Shown piece by piece: positions 134 to 9,212 of a DNA stretch of 64,000 nt (positions are counted from its first letter, which is position 1; each line of letters begins with the position of its first letter). Source of the DNA: a virus. A program made the position numbers and the translations under genes. The notes beneath the pieces were generated by a model. It was not told where the DNA came from, ran no database searches, and worked only from the letters and a program-made list of their open reading frames with translations. The stretch lies in IMG/VR virus record IMGVR_UViG_3300036792_000267, positions 87,378-151,377 of that record. One strand, 5' to 3'.

Positions 134-853
134 GTGGGCGTAGTAGTCAGCATGGTACGTAATTCATCAATGCTGTCCGACGAGTCTTGGCTGCGCGAGC
201 GCTACCTCGTTGACGAACTGTCCACCACCGCCATTGCGGCGCTGGCCAACTGCTCTCAGGCCACGGTGTGCAACCGGCTGGCCGGGTACGGAATCCCGCG
301 GCGTCCCCGAGGTCGCTTTACGCAGAGCCGGATCGACGCTGACGGCCGAGAGTGCACGGCTTGCGGTGACTACAAAGCGTGGAACGAGTACTCGCCTAGC
401 AAGCCGACGCAGCCAGGCGGCCGGTACTCCGTCTGCAAGGTCTGCTGGAACGGCACGCGCGGTGGCGGCCCCGGTAACCGGAATGGCGAGTACCGTGCGT
501 GGGCACTCAAGCGCATGGGCATCACGCAAGCCGAGTACGACTGGCTGCTAGCCCTGCAGAAGGGCGTGTGCGCTCTCCATGGTGGCCCGGAGACTAGGAA
601 GGGTGCGCTGTACCTTTCCGTCGACCACGACCACAACTGCTGTCCGCCGGTAAAGGTCGGGCAGACCCGGTGCTGCAAGAAGTGCATCCGCGGCCTGCTC
701 TGCCACGACTGCAACCACATGGTCGGCCTAGCTGAGAAGCTAGGTCAGGCGTGGCGGTTCCCTGATTACCTGGGCTCGCGCCCCTTCATGGGGAAGGGGG
801 TGGTGCTCATGACGCCTTATTCTGAGCCTCTGAGCCACAGTTGTGGCTTATGA
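134..853 (+). CDS. Endonuclease VII-family (HNH-like) endonuclease with N-terminal HTH and Zn-finger
   Basis: CALHG...LSVDHDHNCC...IRGLLCHDCN EndoVII signature; CxxC pairs; start may be 152 or 170. Confidence 0.8.
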   Translation: MGVVVSMVRNSSMLSDESWLRERYLVDELSTTAIAALANCSQATVCNRLAGYGIPRRPRGRFTQSRIDADGRECTACGDYKAWNEYSPSKPTQPGGRYSVCKVCWNGTRGGGPGNRNGEYRAWALKRMGITQAEYDWLLALQKGVCALHGGPETRKGALYLSVDHDHNCCPPVKVGQTRCCKKCIRGLLCHDCNHMVGLAEKLGQAWRFPDYLGSRPFMGKGVVLMTPYSEPLSHSCGL

Positions 854-935
854 GGGACCAGAATACTGGTTAGATCGCTTTGGTATGTAATTTACAAGGC
901 GATCGGTTTAACATTCAGGTGACTTCGGCGACCTG
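843..935 (+). other. Candidate translational-bypass region: interrupted 5' end of the tape measure gene
   Basis: TGG(867)-TTAGATCGCTT-TGG(881) and GGT(905)-TTAACATTCA-GGT(918). Hopping between matched codons gives MAYEGPEYW-YVIYKAIG-DFGDLMRDAA, in frame with the TMP ORF. Confidence 0.6.
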
Positions 936-3900
936 ATGCGGGACGCGGCGCAGGCTAAGGCCGCGCTGCAGGGGATGGGCGATGCGGCCAAGGCGGAGAC
1001 CGCGGCCGAGGTGGCGGGCGCGACCCAGGCCGCCGCCGCGCGCGGCAAGGGCATCACGTCCATCCAGCAGGAGACGCAGGCCCTTAACCAGCTCGCCAAC
1101 GCCGCCAAGCAGACCAACGTCCAGCTGCTCTACGGCGGCCGGAATGACATGACCCAGCACCTGAGCGACCTGGCTCAGGAGCTGAACTACACCACCTTGC
1201 TCAACCGGCAGAAGTGGCTCGGCTTCTCCTCCGTCCAGCAGGCCATGTCGTACCGCCAGCAGATGTATAACCTGGCGCTGCTGGAGAACAAAGCGCACTT
1301 CGCCGGCTACCTGACCGCGGACCAGTACCTGGGCTTCCTGCAGCGCGAGACCGCCCAGACCGCGGCGCTGTCGGCCGCCATCCGCGACCGCAGCGCGGCC
1401 ATCGGCGCCGAGACCCAGATGCTGCTCGCGCACGCCAACGCGCTGCAGGGCACCCACGCGACGGCAGGCAGCCTGGGCGAGGGCCTGAGCACGGTCAACG
1501 CCTACAACGTGGCGCTGGTCGGGCTGCCGGACACGGTGGTCACCAAGGCCGTCCTTGATGACAGCCAGGCGATGTCGCAGCTGGCTGCCTACCGCGCGGC
1601 GCTGACCTCGCTTCCCAACGCGGAGACCACCGACATCACCTCGGTTGCCACCCGGCTGGGCGGCGTCCCGCTGACGGGCGCGCGCCAGGCGGTGCCGGTC
1701 AGCGTCCGCCCCGAGATCGACTACGCCGCGATCAACAAGATGCTGTCCCAGGCGGTCGCCGGGGCGCACCCGGAGGCGCTGCGCGCGCCGCTGGCCATCA
1801 CCGGGTCGGGAGCGGCGGATTCCGCGCTGTCGGCCACGGCGGATTCCGCGCTGTCGGCCACGGCGGACGACGCCGGCGCGCTGTCGGCGTCCATGTCCGA
1901 GCTGAGCGACAAGGCGGCCATTTCCGCCGAGGCAATCAGCAAGTTCCAGGACTCCCTCGCGCTGGCCGCGGTCGACGCCCGCGCGCTGGAGCAGGGACTC
2001 GGGCGCCTGTCGGCCGCCGAGCAGCTGCTGTCTGAGGTTAACGCCCAGTTCGTGCCGCAGAAAGGCCGCAAGAAGGCGGCGGCTGCCGACCCGGCGCAGA
2101 ACCTCGCTGACCTGTACGGGCTGCAGGACGTCGCCGGCGCGCTGCGCGAGGGCGCGATCTCCGACGCGCCGCGCGGCTACCCGCTGTCCGCCCCGGGCAT
2201 GAAGATCATCCCGCCGACGCAGGCGGGAGAAGAAGACCTGTGGTCGGGGCTGTCCAAGTACATGCAGGGCGGCAAGGCCGCGGGGACTGCCACCGAGAAG
2301 GTTGCCGTCGAGGGCGGCCAGGAGGCCGAGGCGACCCTCGACAAGATCGCCGTCCAGATGGAGTGGCTGGACCATGAGGATGCCAAGCCGAAGCTAGAGC
2401 TGGAAGGCGGCCAGGAGGCGCTAGACGACGCCTACCACCTGGACGGCGTACTCGTCGGCCTGACTTACGAGCGCGCGGAGCCGGAAGTCGCCCTGCAAGG
2501 CGGAGCCGAGGCGCTGGGAGAAGTCACCGCCCTGGACGAGGGGCTGCACGAGATCCCGCACGAGACTGACACCGTCCTGGTGGTCGAGTCCTCCGGGGCC
2601 TCCAGCGAGGTCCGCGATTACAGCCGCGACATTGAGGACATCGAGCGTGAGGTGGGCACTCGCGCCGACTTCGAGGACACCGAGGCGGAGAGCGGGCTGT
2701 CGCGCTGGCTGACCGCCCTGGCTGCGGCGGTCCAGCACAAGTACGACTTCTACGCCAGCTTCAACGACGACGCGGCCAAGGCCGAGCTGGCCGGGTGGAT
2801 CAGCGAGCTTGAGGCGGCACGCGCCGAGGAGAACCGCATCACCGCCGGCATGGGCGGTGCCTCCGGTGGCGGTGGCGGCGGAGGGCCGCCTGTTCCCCCT
2901 GCTGCCGCCGGCGACGCGCCCAACCCGGATGACCGGGCGATGTGGGAGGCCGTCGCCGCCGAGATGGCCAAGGTAGACGCCCTCTTCAAGAACACCGGCC
3001 GTGACGCCGCTGCCGCCGGGGCCGCCGCGTCCAAGGCCGGCCGGGACGGCGCGCAGGCGGTCACCTCGATGGTGCTGCCGCTGACCAACGGCGCGCGCGG
3101 CTGGTTCGGCCTGCTCACCCAGGTCAACCTGTTCGGCGGCCTGCTGCCCGGCATCCTGGGCCACACCACGGCCCTGCACTTCGTCCTTGACGCGATCATC
3201 GAGACGATCGCCATCCTGCTGCCGGCCATCGTCACCATGGCAGCCGGGCTGACCGCGTTCGGCATCGCTGGCTACGACGCCGGCAAGGCGGTCTACGAGC
3301 GCCTGACGGCGATTCACACCGCGGCCGACGCCACCGGCCAGTCCATCCCGCCGCTGACCGGGAACCTGGAGAAGCTGCACGACACGGTGCGCCCGCAGGT
3401 CTGGCAGTTGTATGGCGACGCCATCACCGTCGCGGGGGCGAAGTCCGGGCTCTTCAACCAGCTGGCCATCCAGACCGGGAACGTGGTCGACCGGCTGGCC
3501 GCGCGGCTGACGGTGGACCTGGTGCAGGGTGGCCAGGGGCTGAAGACGTTCCTGTCGGTCGGCGCGGAGAACCTGGCCAAGCTCGGCACCATCTTCGACA
3601 ACCTCGGCAAGGCCCTGATGGCGTTCATCAAGGTCACCGAGGACACCCACATTGACCAGATTTTCCTGGCCATCTTCGTGGCGCTGTCCCAGTTCCTGGT
3701 GCTCATCACCAAGCTGCCCACCCCGTTGCTCGCCGCCGTGGTCGCGCTGCACGCGTTCTGGCTGTGGGGCGGCCTGCTGGCCACCGTGGTCCTGCAGATG
3801 CTCAACCCGCTGCGCTCGCTGGCACTGGCGCTGGGCGCGGTCGACGCCGCCTCAGTGAACGGCGGCCTGGCCAGCCTGACCAAGGACGCGTCGGCCTGGC

Positions 3901-6900
3901 AGCGGCTGAAGGCCGGCCTGACCGACATCGCAGCCGGGTTCGGCGCACTGCCGGCCCGGTTCAGCCTGAGCAGCAAGGCGGCCGGCGAAGCTGAAGTCGC
4001 CTTCGATGACATGGGCAACGCGCTGGTGGCTACTGACGCGGAGATGGCGGCCGGCGCCACGTCCGGCGGCGGCCTGCTCTCGGTGCTCGGGCGGCTCGTC
4101 CCGGCCGGCGGCGCTGCCGCCGGGGCTGCCGCGCTGCTGGGCAGCGCGCTGGCCGCCGCCTACGTCTACCTGGCGCTGCTGCCCGACGCGACCCAGAAGT
4201 GGATCAACTCCCTCAACCAGACGCTGGCTAAGACCACCGCGTTCACTGTGGTCTCCGCGACGGTCGGTGACCTGGCGGCGGTCACCCAGCAACTGGCAAA
4301 GGCCCAGGCCGACGGGACAGGCAACGCCTCTGAGCTGGCCGGGGCGCAGCGCGGCCTGTCCAGTGACCTGTCCAACGAGCTGGGGCACGTCGGGGCGGTG
4401 TCCAAGGCTTACGGCACCGACTTCCTGGGCGCGCTGGAGCTGCTGAACGCGGCCGGGGTGAAGACCTCCGACATCTTCTCCGCCCAGGGCAAGGCCTGGG
4501 AGGCGGACCTGCAGCAGGTCCAGGGCCTGGTGCAGGGCTACAAGGCGATGGGCCAGGGGCTGTCCGCGCTGCAGCAGGACGTCTCGGTCCAGCTGGTGAC
4601 CACCAGCGACCAGGTAACCGCCATGGGCAACCTGAACAAGGCCTGGGACGCCTGGACCAAGACCGTCGGCGGGGCCCCCAGCACGTTCATCGCCCTGGCC
4701 CAGGGCTTCGCCACGTTCAACACGGATGCCGCGGCGGCCGGGGCCGCTATGACCGGGCTGAACGCGCCCAGCCTCACCCTGCAGAGCGACTTCCAGTCCA
4801 ACTACAACAACGTCCAGGCGTTTTTCGACGCGTTCCGCAACGACCAGGCGCTCACCGGGGCGGGCGACTTCACCAAGTTCGTCAAGGACGCGGTAGCCAG
4901 CCTCATCCCGATGGCGGGTGGCTCCAAGGAGGCCGCCGCCCAGATCTCCGCCCTCGCCCAGGAGGCCGGCGGGCCGGCCACGACCAACATCAAGACGCTG
5001 CAGCAGTGGGTCGGCAACATCAAGGACCCGCTGCTGCAGATGTATAAGGCCAGCAATGACGCAGCGATCGGGGCCTCAAGCCTGAGCCAGGACGCGGCCC
5101 GGCTGACCTCCACCCTGCAGCAGCAGCTCAACCCGGCCATGGCATCGGCCATCTTCAACGCCCACGGCGGCCAGGCCGTCTTCAACGCGTTCGCCGACGC
5201 CCTGGCCAAGGGCGGGCCGAGCAGCGGCGCGACCATCACCGCGGCGCACAACGTGGCCCGCGAGCTGCTGGCGGTGTCCGGCTCCAGCGCTAACGCCAAG
5301 GCGAACTTCGTCGGGTTCACCGAGGCGATGGGGCTGAGCGCCAAGCAGGCTAACGCCCTGTGGGCCCAGGTCACCAAGATCCCGGCCAACGCCAGGACCA
5401 CCTACACCCTGGACGCGGAGCAGGCGCTGCAGAAGGCGGAAAAGCTCTCCGCGGAGCTGCCGCACCTGACCGGCCAGAAGAAGCTCCAGGTTGAGGCAGA
5501 GGTCAAGGACCTGCAGTTGCAGGCCATGAACGACAAGCTCAAGGCCGCCAAGGGGGACGTCAGCGACCTCAACAACGCGAGCCTGAGCAAGCTGCGCGGC
5601 CAGCTCGCGTCCACCGCCGGCTCTGCGGCCGACCTCGTCAAGCCCGGCGAAGTCGACACCATCCTCAAGTCGTTCAAGGACGGCACGTTCTACGAGGTCA
5701 CGTTCCTGGCGTGGATTCCGCAGGTCCAGCGCGCCCTGAACGTGGTGAACCACGATGTCGGGCAGTTTTTCGCTCATGACATCCCGGTGGCGTTCGGCGT
5801 CACCAGCCACGCCTTCGAGGCGGCGTGGGACGGGATGGTCAACTGGTTCACCCAGTCGGTGCCGCACGGGCTGGAGACGGCCTGGGGCACCGTGTCGTCG
5901 TTCTTCGACAAGGCGTTCACCCACGACATCCCCGCGGCGTGGGACTCCGCCTGGGGCACCCTGGTCTCCCCGGTCACTCACGCGTTCGATGACGTGAAAA
6001 CCTGGGTCTCCTCCAATTTCGACACCTGGTGGAAGACCCATGGCCAGGGCGTCATGGCCATCTGGGACACCTTGTGGGGGGAGATCTCCGGGGCGGCCAT
6101 CAAGGCGTTCGACCTGGTAGAGACCGGGGCCACCGGCTTCCGGCACGTCCTCACCGCCATCTTCACCAGCGGCCCCGTCAAGCAGGTCTGGTCCGGGTTC
6201 TCCGGTGCAGCCGCCGACACCTGGCATTTCATCGAGTCCCTGGCCACTGCCGCCTGGCAGATGGCGGTCGCCGGCGCGCGGGCCACCTGGAACGAGGTCG
6301 CCGCGCTAGGCAAGGCGGCCTGGGACCTGGTGGTCGCGGCGGCCAGGGCTGCCTGGGACATCATCTGGGCCCTGATCGGCGCCGAGGTCAAGTCCGCGGC
6401 AGCCATCGCGACCGCGTCGTTCAAGGTGCTGTGGGACCAGGTGGTCGCGCTGGCCAAGGTCGGCTGGGACACCATCGTCCTGATCATCAACGAGGTCATT
6501 GACCTCTTCACCGGGCACTGGGCCACGGCGTGGAAGGACCTGCAGGCGTACGGCATCCAGGTGTGGAACGCCGTCAAGACAGCCGGCATCCAGACGTGGA
6601 ACGCGATCTCGACTGCGGCGACCCAGGTGTGGAACGCGATCTGGAACGCCGTCAAGACGGCTGCCACCCAGACCTGGAACGCGTTCAAGACCGGCGGCCA
6701 GCAGGCGTGGTCCGCGATCTGGCACTCGCTGCAGGCCACGTTCATCAACCCGCTGGCGGCTTTCTTCACCTCCACCGTGCCCAAGTGGTGGGACAGCTTC
6801 GCGAACTTCGCGTCCTCTACCTGGACCAAGGTGTGGTCCGGCTTCCAGAAGAACGTCCTGCAGCCGATCGAGGGCTTCTTCACCTCGACACTGCCCAACG

Positions 6901-9212
6901 CCATGTGGAACTCCCTCAAGGGCGGGATTGACCACGTAATCTCCGGGCTGAACACGGTCATCGGCTGGATCAACGCGGTGACTTCGGTCGTGGGCGTGCA
7001 CATCTCCCCGATCTCGATGCTCGCGGCCGGCGGCGTGGCCCCGCAGCGGATGGCGCACGGCAGCGTGCCGGGGACGGGCGACGAGGACGGCACGCACATC
7101 ATCGCGATGGGCGGGGAGTACATCCTGCGCAAGCCCGCCAGGATGGCCCTGCAGGCCGCCTACGGGCCCCAGTTCCTCGATGAGCTGAACCAGGCGGACT
7201 CCTGGCTGGGCTCGGGCTCGCGCGGCAGCACGGCCACCCAGCAGCGCCGTCCGGGCCGGTACGCGTCCGGTGGCATCCCGGTCATCTCCGACATCGGCAA
7301 CTGGCTGGGCGACGCGGGCAGCGCCGTCGCCGGGGCCGCCTCCTCCGTCTGGCACGGCGTCGCCGACGCGGCCGGCGAGGTCGCCAAGTTCGGGGAGAAG
7401 GCCGTCTTCGACGCCATGTGGTCGGTCTCCGGCGCCCCGGCGGAGAAGGCGATGGAGGCGCTGGGCACGCCCGGTGACATGGGCGCGGCGTGGCTGCAGA
7501 CCATCCACAACGGGGTGGAGAACTACGTCACCGCCCAGACCGCCAAGGCGCAGGCGTCCAGCAAGTCGACCGGCTCCATCACCGGCGCCGGGGTGTCCAA
7601 CTCCTCGGCCTACGCGGCCCTGCAGTCGGCGGCGGCCAAGAAGGGCTGGACCGGGGCCCAGTGGGCCGCGCTCAACGACGTGGAGATGGCCGAGGCAGGC
7701 TACAGCCTCACCGCCACCAACCCGAGCAGCGGCGCGTACGGCATGGCCCAGTTTATTAACGGACCGGGAGAGTACGCACAGTACGGCGGTAATTCGACAA
7801 CAGCAGCGGGACAAGCGGTAGCGATGGTAAATTACATCGCACAAAGATACGGAAATCCAGAGAGCGCATGGGCTCATGAGGTCGCGTACCACTGGTATGC
7901 CGCAGGCGGGCCGGTCATCGACGCCATCCGCGCCGTCACCGGCAACGTCAACGAGCAGGAGGCGATGGCCCTCGGCTCGTGGCTGCTGACCAGGATGAAC
8001 CCGGCGGGTACCGCGCCGCACTACAGCGAGTCCGGGGCCTGGCTGATTAACACCGCCAAGAACAAGGCCGTCACCCAGACGCAGGCGCTCAACGCCAACA
8101 ACGCTGCCCGGTACCTCGCGCCGTACTACGCCAAGGCCATCCTCGGGTCCACCCCGGCGTCGTGGAAGGCGACCCCGGCGACCGCCGCACTCAAGGCCGA
8201 CGCCGCCGTGGCCGCCGCTACCGGCACGCACTGGTCCACCCCGTCGGCCGCCACCCTCGCAGCCGGGTGGAACGCCGTGTCGACCGACCTGGGCCCGGCC
8301 GTCAAGCAGGTCACAGCGGCGGCCAGCACCAGTGACACCGCCGCCTACCAGGCTGCTGCCGCGCAGCTGTACCCCGACTGGGAGGGCGCGCTCAACCCCT
8401 GGAAGACGCTGAGCGCGCTCCACCAGCCCAAGGGCGTATCGGCCCCGGACTGGGCGTCGTGGCTGGCCCAGCGCGCCGTCATCGCCAACCGGGTGAGCGT
8501 GGCCGGCAGCTACGTCGCGCCGCTGTTCGATGACCTGAAAGTCAACCCGCAGGAGCTGACCGCGGCCATGTGGTCGCACACCGACTCCAGCGTGCGGCGC
8601 TGGCAGGCGGCGATGGACGTGGCCGGCTGGGCCAAGTCCAAGGAGCCGGCGCTCTACAGCCCGATCCAGTCCAACCTGGCCAAGCTGGAGCCCGAGATCG
8701 TCAAGGCGGGCAACGCGTGGATCAACGTCTGGGGCACCACCCATACCCCGCCGCCGGGCGGAGGAGGCGGGTCCTCCGGCGGCGGAGGCGGAGGCACGAT
8801 CGGCCCCGGCAGCGGCCCTGGTGGCAGCGCCGGGTCTACGGTCATCGACCTCGCCCCGCTCATCACTGGCGGCCCCAAGGTGGCCAACGCCGGGGATTAC
8901 GGCTTCAACATTGCCGCGGGCGGCGGTGTCCCCGGCAATGTCGCGGCGATGTTCTCCGGCGGCATGGCCATGGCGGCTGGCGGGGTGGTGCCCAACCTGT
9001 TCGTGCCGGGCCTGTCGGCCAACCTTTCGCGGCAGCTCACCGCCGCCACCTCCGGCCAGTTGCCGCGCACCCTGTCGGATGCGGCCGGCAACCGGGTGGG
9101 CCTGCAGGTCGAGAACCTGACGATTTCCAATCCTGTTGCCGAAAAGCCGTCTGACTCCATCACCAGAGCCAGCAACAGGCTGGCATTCCTTGGCGGGAGG
9201 GGGATGGTCTGA
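936..9212 (+). CDS. Tape measure protein with C-terminal lytic transglycosylase-like domain (true start probably upstream, ~843 or 809)
   Basis: 2758 aa, Ala-rich, W-periodic helical repeats (WNAVKTAGIQTWNAISTAATQVWNA), AAGG motifs, SLT-like NPSSGAYGMAQF...YIAQRYG; precedes tail genes. Confidence 0.92.
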   Translation: MRDAAQAKAALQGMGDAAKAETAAEVAGATQAAAARGKGITSIQQETQALNQLANAAKQTNVQLLYGGRNDMTQHLSDLAQELNYTTLLNRQKWLGFSSVQQAMSYRQQMYNLALLENKAHFAGYLTADQYLGFLQRETAQTAALSAAIRDRSAAIGAETQMLLAHANALQGTHATAGSLGEGLSTVNAYNVALVGLPDTVVTKAVLDDSQAMSQLAAYRAALTSLPNAETTDITSVATRLGGVPLTGARQAVPVSVRPEIDYAAINKMLSQAVAGAHPEALRAPLAITGSGAADSALSATADSALSATADDAGALSASMSELSDKAAISAEAISKFQDSLALAAVDARALEQGLGRLSAAEQLLSEVNAQFVPQKGRKKAAAADPAQNLADLYGLQDVAGALREGAISDAPRGYPLSAPGMKIIPPTQAGEEDLWSGLSKYMQGGKAAGTATEKVAVEGGQEAEATLDKIAVQMEWLDHEDAKPKLELEGGQEALDDAYHLDGVLVGLTYERAEPEVALQGGAEALGEVTALDEGLHEIPHETDTVLVVESSGASSEVRDYSRDIEDIEREVGTRADFEDTEAESGLSRWLTALAAAVQHKYDFYASFNDDAAKAELAGWISELEAARAEENRITAGMGGASGGGGGGGPPVPPAAAGDAPNPDDRAMWEAVAAEMAKVDALFKNTGRDAAAAGAAASKAGRDGAQAVTSMVLPLTNGARGWFGLLTQVNLFGGLLPGILGHTTALHFVLDAIIETIAILLPAIVTMAAGLTAFGIAGYDAGKAVYERLTAIHTAADATGQSIPPLTGNLEKLHDTVRPQVWQLYGDAITVAGAKSGLFNQLAIQTGNVVDRLAARLTVDLVQGGQGLKTFLSVGAENLAKLGTIFDNLGKALMAFIKVTEDTHIDQIFLAIFVALSQFLVLITKLPTPLLAAVVALHAFWLWGGLLATVVLQMLNPLRSLALALGAVDAASVNGGLASLTKDASAWQRLKAGLTDIAAGFGALPARFSLSSKAAGEAEVAFDDMGNALVATDAEMAAGATSGGGLLSVLGRLVPAGGAAAGAAALLGSALAAAYVYLALLPDATQKWINSLNQTLAKTTAFTVVSATVGDLAAVTQQLAKAQADGTGNASELAGAQRGLSSDLSNELGHVGAVSKAYGTDFLGALELLNAAGVKTSDIFSAQGKAWEADLQQVQGLVQGYKAMGQGLSALQQDVSVQLVTTSDQVTAMGNLNKAWDAWTKTVGGAPSTFIALAQGFATFNTDAAAAGAAMTGLNAPSLTLQSDFQSNYNNVQAFFDAFRNDQALTGAGDFTKFVKDAVASLIPMAGGSKEAAAQISALAQEAGGPATTNIKTLQQWVGNIKDPLLQMYKASNDAAIGASSLSQDAARLTSTLQQQLNPAMASAIFNAHGGQAVFNAFADALAKGGPSSGATITAAHNVARELLAVSGSSANAKANFVGFTEAMGLSAKQANALWAQVTKIPANARTTYTLDAEQALQKAEKLSAELPHLTGQKKLQVEAEVKDLQLQAMNDKLKAAKGDVSDLNNASLSKLRGQLASTAGSAADLVKPGEVDTILKSFKDGTFYEVTFLAWIPQVQRALNVVNHDVGQFFAHDIPVAFGVTSHAFEAAWDGMVNWFTQSVPHGLETAWGTVSSFFDKAFTHDIPAAWDSAWGTLVSPVTHAFDDVKTWVSSNFDTWWKTHGQGVMAIWDTLWGEISGAAIKAFDLVETGATGFRHVLTAIFTSGPVKQVWSGFSGAAADTWHFIESLATAAWQMAVAGARATWNEVAALGKAAWDLVVAAARAAWDIIWALIGAEVKSAAAIATASFKVLWDQVVALAKVGWDTIVLIINEVIDLFTGHWATAWKDLQAYGIQVWNAVKTAGIQTWNAISTAATQVWNAIWNAVKTAATQTWNAFKTGGQQAWSAIWHSLQATFINPLAAFFTSTVPKWWDSFANFASSTWTKVWSGFQKNVLQPIEGFFTSTLPNAMWNSLKGGIDHVISGLNTVIGWINAVTSVVGVHISPISMLAAGGVAPQRMAHGSVPGTGDEDGTHIIAMGGEYILRKPARMALQAAYGPQFLDELNQADSWLGSGSRGSTATQQRRPGRYASGGIPVISDIGNWLGDAGSAVAGAASSVWHGVADAAGEVAKFGEKAVFDAMWSVSGAPAEKAMEALGTPGDMGAAWLQTIHNGVENYVTAQTAKAQASSKSTGSITGAGVSNSSAYAALQSAAAKKGWTGAQWAALNDVEMAEAGYSLTATNPSSGAYGMAQFINGPGEYAQYGGNSTTAAGQAVAMVNYIAQRYGNPESAWAHEVAYHWYAAGGPVIDAIRAVTGNVNEQEAMALGSWLLTRMNPAGTAPHYSESGAWLINTAKNKAVTQTQALNANNAARYLAPYYAKAILGSTPASWKATPATAALKADAAVAAATGTHWSTPSAATLAAGWNAVSTDLGPAVKQVTAAASTSDTAAYQAAAAQLYPDWEGALNPWKTLSALHQPKGVSAPDWASWLAQRAVIANRVSVAGSYVAPLFDDLKVNPQELTAAMWSHTDSSVRRWQAAMDVAGWAKSKEPALYSPIQSNLAKLEPEIVKAGNAWINVWGTTHTPPPGGGGGSSGGGGGGTIGPGSGPGGSAGSTVIDLAPLITGGPKVANAGDYGFNIAAGGGVPGNVAAMFSGGMAMAAGGVVPNLFVPGLSANLSRQLTAATSGQLPRTLSDAAGNRVGLQVENLTISNPVAEKPSDSITRASNRLAFLGGRGMV
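1813..1867 (+). repeat. 24-bp in-frame tandem repeat in TMP (ADSALSAT x2)
   Basis: CGGCGGATTCCGCGCTGTCGGCCA at 1813 and 1837, plus a partial third copy. Confidence 0.85.

Follow-up and report, generated by a model that had tools for sequence, protein, structure and literature searches.

At the 5' end of the tape measure gene of an uncultured soil phage, the conserved N-terminal peptide of the protein is split over three coding pieces, which raises the question of where translation of the gene starts and how the ribosome reaches its long open reading frame (ORF). The phage is known from metagenome assembly, belongs to a clade with genomes of ~150 kb, and is represented by the IMG/VR virus record IMGVR_UViG_3300036792_000267 (151,377 bp, direct terminal repeats, 68% GC). 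The stretch analyzed here, referred to as the window, is the last 64 kb of this record (64,000 nucleotides (nt), positions 87,378 to 151,377); its genome is denoted G000, and positions prefixed G000:C1 follow the numbering of the whole record. UUA-led double bypassing at the start of the tape measure gene appears to be a real and, from comparison with related loci, well-supported case of a known but very rare kind of decoding. Translation would start at GTG 843 and pass through two UUA-led hops over short coding gaps, which are probably owed to the endonuclease VII gene located upstream. We put the probability of this reading at about 0.8.

The tape measure ORF counted from ATG 936 (936-9212) encodes 2758 amino acids (aa), and the whole protein, with both gaps hopped over, would have 2780 aa. 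In an earlier note, made from the sequence of the window alone, the region was described as a GTG start at 843, a TTA-led gap between two TGG codons, a TTA-led gap between two GGT codons, and ATG 936, and this layout matches the sequence base for base. Both take-off codons directly abut an in-frame TTA (TGG-TTA, 867-872; GGT-TTA, 905-910). Reading through in the frame of 843 ends at TAA 888-890 and in the frame of 884 at TGA 920-922, the two stops that the note had pointed out, and decoding of UUA instead of hopping thus leads to termination after 6 or 4 codons. The region of the gaps is AT-rich, as had also been noted (GC 0.42-0.43 over 841-930 vs 0.68 genome-wide), and ATG 936 has no purine-rich Shine-Dalgarno sequence (SD) upstream. 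Around the gaps, neither an Rfam family nor a site resembling a promoter or terminator was found. PHROG tape measure families match the middle third of the protein, and a transglycosylase-like part is found near the C-terminus.

For the 5' region of the tape measure gene, 21 related loci were collected from viral and metagenome contigs, corresponding to 18 distinct sequences, of which six were gapless (L006, L008/L014, L009, L012, L015, and L020) and 12 gapped. An alignment-based profile scan of viral contigs recovered the same 11 loci. A phage collection contained no match to the tape measure 5' end at the level of near DNA or of protein. In 185,579 species genomes no relative was found, and hence no clue to a prophage or host. 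In the gapless relatives, a strong SD is followed after 5-8 nt by a start codon and 22 codons for a peptide, MAYEGPEYW...GDFGDL, that shows few substitutions and leads directly into the Met equivalent to 936. These relatives read ...EYWYVIYKAIGDF..., i.e. the peptide that the earlier note had predicted by removing both gaps. An unbiased deletion search, in which every possible start was combined with one or two deletions, free in position and length, recovered the 22-residue peptide in all 12 distinct gapped sequences, and every solution could be written as a TTA-led gap.

The gaps of the gapped sequences fall into 10 types, 4-16 nt long, at six positions (after codons 8, 9, 11, 14, 17, and 20; Table 1). 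TTA is the first codon in 10 of the 10 types, eight start with TTAA or TTAG so that the +1 frame is closed immediately, and in eight the landing codon specifies the amino acid of the take-off codon. Since the landing codons are untranslated, coding constraint cannot account for this match. Take-off and landing codons were also found to covary: residue 17 of L022 is Ala and its gap is bordered by GCT...GCT, vs GGT...GGT in the window. L022 has two gaps, a Lys instead of Met at the position of 936, and its next in-frame ATG ~50 codons downstream. Pairwise comparison over the 22 codons gave 541 synonymous vs 170 non-synonymous codon differences among the gapped sequences and 94 vs 53 among the gapless ones; the 22 codons are at least as conservative in gapped as in gapless sequences, and purifying selection acts on all three pieces. 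The relatives thus strongly support the claim that two matched-codon, TTA-led gaps would have to be bypassed to produce the N-terminus of the tape measure protein. A genome-wide scan for a codon repeated after a TTA-led spacer, which had been suggested in the note, did find the second tape measure gap, but the bare pattern was common (274 hits in a loose scan), and significance therefore rests on the comparison with relatives and not on the pattern.

Table 1. Features of the tape measure locus, gap types among related loci, and further gaps in the same genome
Feature	Position	Strand	Remarks
Endonuclease VII-type HNH gene, 239 aa	134..853	+	Pfam PF02945, E 6e-12; PHROG endonuclease VII
Copy of tape measure SD region (GGGAAGGGGGTG-like)	797..853	+	Then ATG 809 and 14 codons, endonuclease frame, ending GGC-TTA-TGA
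Tape measure piece 1	843..869	+	GTG start, codons 1-9, take-off codon TGG 867-869; start and peptide as in gapless L006, L008, L009, L012, L015, and L020
Coding gap 1, 14 nt	870..883	+	TTA 870-872, 8 nt, landing TGG 881-883; in the deletion search, peptide restored only if these 14 nt are removed
Predicted hairpin	873..904	+	10-bp stem; 5' arm 873-882 in gap 1, 3' arm 895-904 in codons 13-16
Tape measure piece 2	884..907	+	Codons 10-17, take-off codon GGT 905-907; gapped relatives differ here mostly synonymously
Coding gap 2, 13 nt	908..920	+	TTA 908-910, 7 nt, landing GGT 918-920; same-site variants in L004, L005, L007, and L022
Tape measure piece 3	921..9212	+	Codon 18 to stop; ATG 936 = residue 23; PHROG tape measure families
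Gap type, related loci	After codon 8		TAT, 4-nt hop to TAC; L016/17
Gap type, related loci	After codon 9		TGG to TGG; 13 nt in L007, 14 nt in window and L002/3/13, 16 nt in L022
Gap type, related loci	After codon 11		GTT, 7 nt; L018 and L021
Gap type, related loci	After codon 14		AAG, 4 nt; L011/19
Gap type, related loci	After codon 17		GGT/GGA/GCT to GGT/GGC/GCT, 10 or 13 nt; window, L002, L004, L005, L007, and L022
Gap type, related loci	After codon 20		GGT to GGC, 10 nt; L010
Upstream gene, gapped lineages: endonuclease VII			Window, L002/3/13, L011/19, L018, and L022
Upstream gene, gapped lineages: other HNH			PF01844 HNH gene in L010; classical HNH on opposite strand in L021
Upstream gene, gapped lineages: endonuclease remnants			L007 and L016/17
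Capsid gap	G000:C1:71692-71701 (L023:3193-3202)		Major capsid gene (Pfam Phage_cap_E), GTT/TTAA GTT after ~17 codons, genome position 71695; 15.7 kb before the window
Nuclease gap	G000:C1:39812-39821 (L024:2313-2322)		PD-(D/E)XK/Cas4-like nuclease gene, CAT/TTAG CAT after 21 codons, genome position 39815

Positions 843-950 fold at -38 kcal/mol (z -3.75 vs shuffles), and the folding predicts the hairpin that had been proposed to follow the first take-off site. The predicted 10-bp stem begins directly after UUA with the landing UGG at the top of the 5' arm, and two further predicted stems contain the take-off UGG (856-861/866-871) and the landing GGU (916-920/930-934). The hairpin is kept in four distinct, closely related sequences with gap 1, showing one compensatory pair and changes from G-C to G-U; L022 pairs AATCGCC with GGCGATT, the window counterpart being GATCGC with GCGATC. 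In the published UUA-led gaps, predicted pairings bring the landing codon near the UUA (PMC10732093), and the stems of the window fit this arrangement.

The stop of the endonuclease gene (TGA 851-853) overlaps the start of the tape measure gene, its last sense codon is TTA 848-850, and the gene ends 17 nt before gap 1. GTG 843 has no SD of its own. The end of the endonuclease gene contains a copy of the tape measure SD region (Table 1), and the endonuclease-free L004 and L005 have the same SD 10 nt before the tape measure start; judged by this arrangement, translation is probably coupled into GTG 843 at 797-853. From the GGC in the end of the endonuclease frame to GGA 855-857 (tape measure codon 5) the distance is 10 nt, the 7+3 geometry that a hop out of the endonuclease frame into that of the tape measure gene would have. 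This may be a coincidence, as it follows from codons 2-5 in another frame and is also seen in endonuclease-free relatives.

TTA accounts for five of the 16,147 codons in long ORFs of the genome (CTG for 988). The 37 phage tRNA genes, clustered at G000:C1:56197-62595, cover nearly all amino acids and include Leu tRNAs with the anticodons CAA, GAG, and CAG, with no Leu-UAA and no Leu-UAG among them. Leu-UAA was also not found in five related genomes with 33-37 tRNAs each and gapped or gapless tape measure genes. Since this tRNA is absent from the phage genomes, decoding of UUA is left to the host. As a discriminator of gapless genomes, tRNA-Leu(UAA) was rejected, being carried by none of the six genomes.

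The gene at 134-853 probably encodes a free-standing homing endonuclease. Exactly three PF02945 genes were identified in the genome, each immediately upstream of a gene whose first ~20 codons contain a TTA-led gap; the distance to the gap is 17-224 nt. At the major capsid gene, the endonuclease VII gene is encoded on the opposite strand, 224 nt upstream; ~70 capsid relatives are uninterrupted, reading MPDISLLEPVVLRGVVEKF..., and four others have different TTA-led gaps (L029, L030, L075, and L104). At the PD-(D/E)XK/Cas4-like nuclease gene, 22 nt separate the end of the endonuclease VII gene from the TTA, and both the gap and the endonuclease gene are missing from the two relatives, L105 and L106. 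In G001, the closest genome, the tape measure gene is accompanied by the endonuclease gene and shows the same gaps; the capsid and nuclease genes of G001 are uninterrupted and lack a neighboring endonuclease gene. Among the tape measure lineages, nine of nine with an upstream HNH-fold gene or a 3' remnant of one are gapped, vs two of eight without (L004 and L005, one gap each); the association gives a Fisher p of 0.002, with lineages that are not independent. At the capsid loci, gaps are enriched near endonuclease genes (3/5 vs 8/48, p 0.05).

The record is a metagenome assembly, in which gaps of this kind could be sequencing or assembly errors; the probability of this is practically negligible, as both gaps are base-identical in independent assemblies from other samples (L002/L013 and L003) with differing flanking codons, and variant forms of the gaps are present in L007 and L022. 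Translation could instead start at ATG 936, with 843-935 being a decaying old N-terminus or a regulatory upstream ORF after insertion of the endonuclease gene, and no bypass taking place. ATG 936 is conserved in 17 of the 18 distinct sequences and opens a complete ORF, and the missing SD at GTG 843 speaks for the same start. ATG 936 is itself without SD, however, while the gapless homologs begin 22 codons upstream behind a strong SD, and a start at 936 would leave several findings unaccounted for: each of the three pieces keeps the peptide in its own frame with mostly synonymous changes, untranslated landing codons match and covary with the take-off codons, and L022 is double-gapped without a Met at this position. 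We consider a start at ATG 936 very unlikely. Slightly less probable still is ordinary +1 or -1 frameshifting near a hungry UUA, in which the gap bases would be translated as a few extra residues and nothing skipped. Hungry codons are known to provoke frameshifts, and the net shifts needed here would be +2/-1 at gap 1 and +1 at gap 2. The +1 frame, however, is closed at once in both gaps (T-TAG 871-873 and T-TAA 909-911) as in most gap types, the region contains no slippery heptamer, and the junction peptide is conserved without insertions in the gapless homologs. The orthologous first gap is 14, 13, or 16 nt long and would need different shift directions, yet it always leads from TGG to TGG. 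In the Streptomyces phage phiHau3, moreover, a stop in the +1 frame did not reduce recoding (PMC10732093).

A different account concerns the function of the gaps. It had been proposed in the earlier note that tail assembly is tied to the bldA tRNA and thereby to the developmental state of the host, with two gaps sharpening the switch, and a sensor of this kind has been suggested for phiHau3 (PMC10732093); the gaps would then be unrelated to the endonuclease gene. The clade carries 33-37 tRNAs and never Leu-UAA, so that the host must decode UUA, and some gaps have no endonuclease gene nearby (L004, L005, L029, and L030). On the other hand, the closest isolate by capsid is the Microbacterium phage Magritte (47.6% identity), whose host is without Streptomyces-type development, and the same proteins are made from gapless genes in close relatives. 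The gaps come and go together with endonuclease genes between near-identical gene sets, and the gapped genes (nuclease, capsid, and tape measure) are unrelated, their only common feature being the adjacent endonuclease gene. A link to Streptomyces bldA and development is an assumption. We regard a developmental sensor as possible but doubtful, and a homing-endonuclease origin of the gaps, which is probable, fits the data better, the link being statistical and having exceptions.

Several observations weigh against bypassing from GTG 843 with gaps owed to the endonuclease gene. In two of the gap types of relatives, the landing codon matches the take-off codon poorly (GTT to GCC and AAG to TAG). 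At the first hop the nascent chain has only 9 residues, and peptidyl-tRNAs with short chains readily drop off. That the host is short of UUA-decoding tRNA is assumed. The hairpin could be a by-product of the origin of the insert, its 5' arm being an inverted copy of codons 14-16, and the sequences that support it are few and closely related, as stated above. Six genomes together contain nine PF02945 genes, of which five are located next to a TTA-led frame break (one of them an odd 2-nt break in G004) and four are not. Endonuclease VII genes without a gap in the adjacent gene were found in L098, G002, G003, and G005, the gene in L098 being orthologous and the capsid start there intact. To these are added the four gapped loci mentioned above that have no endonuclease gene nearby, and the phiHau3 terminase, which, unlike the tape measure locus, has no adjacent endonuclease gene.

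In the bypass reading, entry of the ribosome at GTG 843 would be coupled to the termination event at TGA 851-853. Once peptidyl-tRNA(Trp) is on UGG 867-869 and the very rare UUA in the A site, the ribosome would stall; the peptidyl-tRNA would then release, the mRNA slide by 14 nt, and the tRNA re-pair with UGG 881-883, possibly with a role for the hairpin. Eight codons later, a second hop of 13 nt would lead from GGU 905-907 to GGU 918-920, and the resulting tape measure protein would have 2780 aa and begin with the conserved peptide. After two hops, the yield would probably be low, which may be affordable for a protein present at few copies per virion; since the major capsid gene also has a gap, the efficiency of hopping cannot be very low. 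As to the origin of the gaps, inserts in the conserved, peptide-constrained 5' end may spoil the target of the endonuclease, or may be repair scars of its cuts. They would persist only if a hungry codon stands first and a matching landing codon last, so that translation skips them. We give even odds to the broader proposition that, in a clade of large soil actinophages, TTA-led mini gaps belong to endonuclease VII-type homing cassettes as their immunity or scar module, i.e. a convergent miniature of the mobA/gene 60 arrangement. If so, a conserved 5' gene end beside such a nuclease can gain an insert of 4-16 nt with UUA first and the landing codon last, and short-range bypassing would be a common and evolvable solution with three uses in one genome (nuclease, major capsid, and tape measure), providing a natural series for working out take-off and landing rules.

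Programmed bypassing is among the rarest of known decoding events, being represented in the literature by T4 gene 60 and its relatives, the byps of yeast mitochondria, and three UUA-led terminase cases that are in part supported by experiment. The UUA-led coding gaps were described from the large terminase of phiHau3 and two Streptomyces prophages (Smith et al. 2013; Antonov et al. 2023, PMC10732093). They were present in three of 100 terminase genes, and for one of the sites mass spectrometry demonstrated bypassing in E. coli (PMC10732093). What the earlier note says of phiHau3 is correct; read directly from the sequence, the two terminase gaps are GGC/TTA+4/GGT and TCT/TTA+4/TCC, both 10-nt blocks. 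The tape measure locus resembles phiHau3 in having an in-frame TTA after the take-off codon, a short gap with a cognate or synonymous landing codon, two gaps per gene, uninterrupted homologs, and a stop soon after read-through, and the 7+3 geometry of phiHau3 is also found in L004, L005, L010, and L022. It differs in that the gene encodes a tape measure protein of an unrelated ~150-kb clade, with longer gaps (14 and 13 nt) at codons 9 and 17, very near the start, and in having ten natural variants at six positions, compared with three terminase cases in 100 genes. Tape measure genes and endonucleases are not mentioned in the phiHau3 study (PMC10732093).

In T4, the 50-nt bypass of gene 60 is associated with the MobA cassette (Bonocora et al. 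2011, as cited in Manning & Atkins, bioRxiv 10.1101/2022.08.31.505936). According to the same preprint, the bypass protects against MobA and outlasts decay of the endonuclease, and other endonuclease families can replace MobA (10.1101/2022.08.31.505936). The tape measure loci share with gene 60 the matched take-off and landing codons and the position of the gap a few dozen bases 3' of a free-standing HNH-fold endonuclease gene; furthermore, gaps are retained after decay of the endonuclease (L007 and L016/17), and other endonuclease families occur at the same site (L010 and L021). In contrast to gene 60, the gaps of the window are 14 and 13 nt instead of 50, the A-site codon is the rare sense codon TTA and not a stop, a long nascent-peptide signal is impossible, the gene is not split, and the endonuclease belongs to Pfam Endonuclease_7. 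The Byp elements in mitochondria of Magnusiomyces capitatus, 27-55 nt long with several per gene (Lang et al. 2014, as cited in PMC10732093), are likewise many short bypassed inserts in coding sequence with matched take-off and landing codons. They differ in being mitochondrial and longer and in having no single rare lead codon.

With this locus, an essential gene of the virion would join these cases, one in which two hops are required over the first 17 codons. The relatives of the locus constitute a natural mutational series (10 gap types of 4-16 nt, perfect and imperfect landings, and one co-varying pair) that bears on the tolerance of the ribosome. Through their co-occurrence with endonuclease VII genes, gaps of the UUA type become connected with the explanation known from T4, in which a homing endonuclease is involved, and the published developmental sensor gains a testable alternative. 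For annotation, it follows that gene callers would place the start of the tape measure gene at ATG 936 and would predict truncated versions of this genome's capsid and nuclease genes. In scans of the genome for further gaps, a filter on GC at third codon positions (GC3) was swamped by antisense frames, and a 25-codon filter was blind near gene starts. An 8-codon filter ranked the second tape measure gap first of 274, while the capsid and nuclease gaps scored low, so that the number of gaps found is a lower bound.

The odd break in G004 is located on the reverse strand of L127. There, the gene that follows the tape measure gene, with an endonuclease VII gene beside it, reads MTQWRYY and then TTA, after which the frame is displaced by 2 nt (TAC TAC TT AGC). 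In L128 (G005) the orthologue is uninterrupted, and the TTA-led break in L127, unusual in its geometry, is possibly a -1 shift. In the tape measure protein, the transglycosylase-like segment comprises residues 220-321 of the last third (window 6936-9209). Phage tails measure ~0.15 nm per tape measure residue, and at this usual ratio 2780 aa implies a tail of ~400 nm.

The N-terminus of the capsid protein, PDISLL..., is preceded by ATC in the genome of the window (L023:3146-3160 = G000:C1:71645-71659), or by ATT, at the usual distance from a strong SD. ATC/ATT-type starts instead of ATG/GTG were also seen in the capsid loci L026, L034, L036, L039, and L073, which suggests that the capsid gene uses a non-canonical start codon. 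At two TTATG junctions (G000:C1:43411 and 15469), the A of an in-frame TTA opens the ATG of the next gene. At G000:C1:43411 the upstream ORF runs for 125 further codons without a stop, and the UUA may act there as a pseudo-stop or coupling point. Several TTA were also seen at G000:C1:67950-68250, in a putative small head-region gene.

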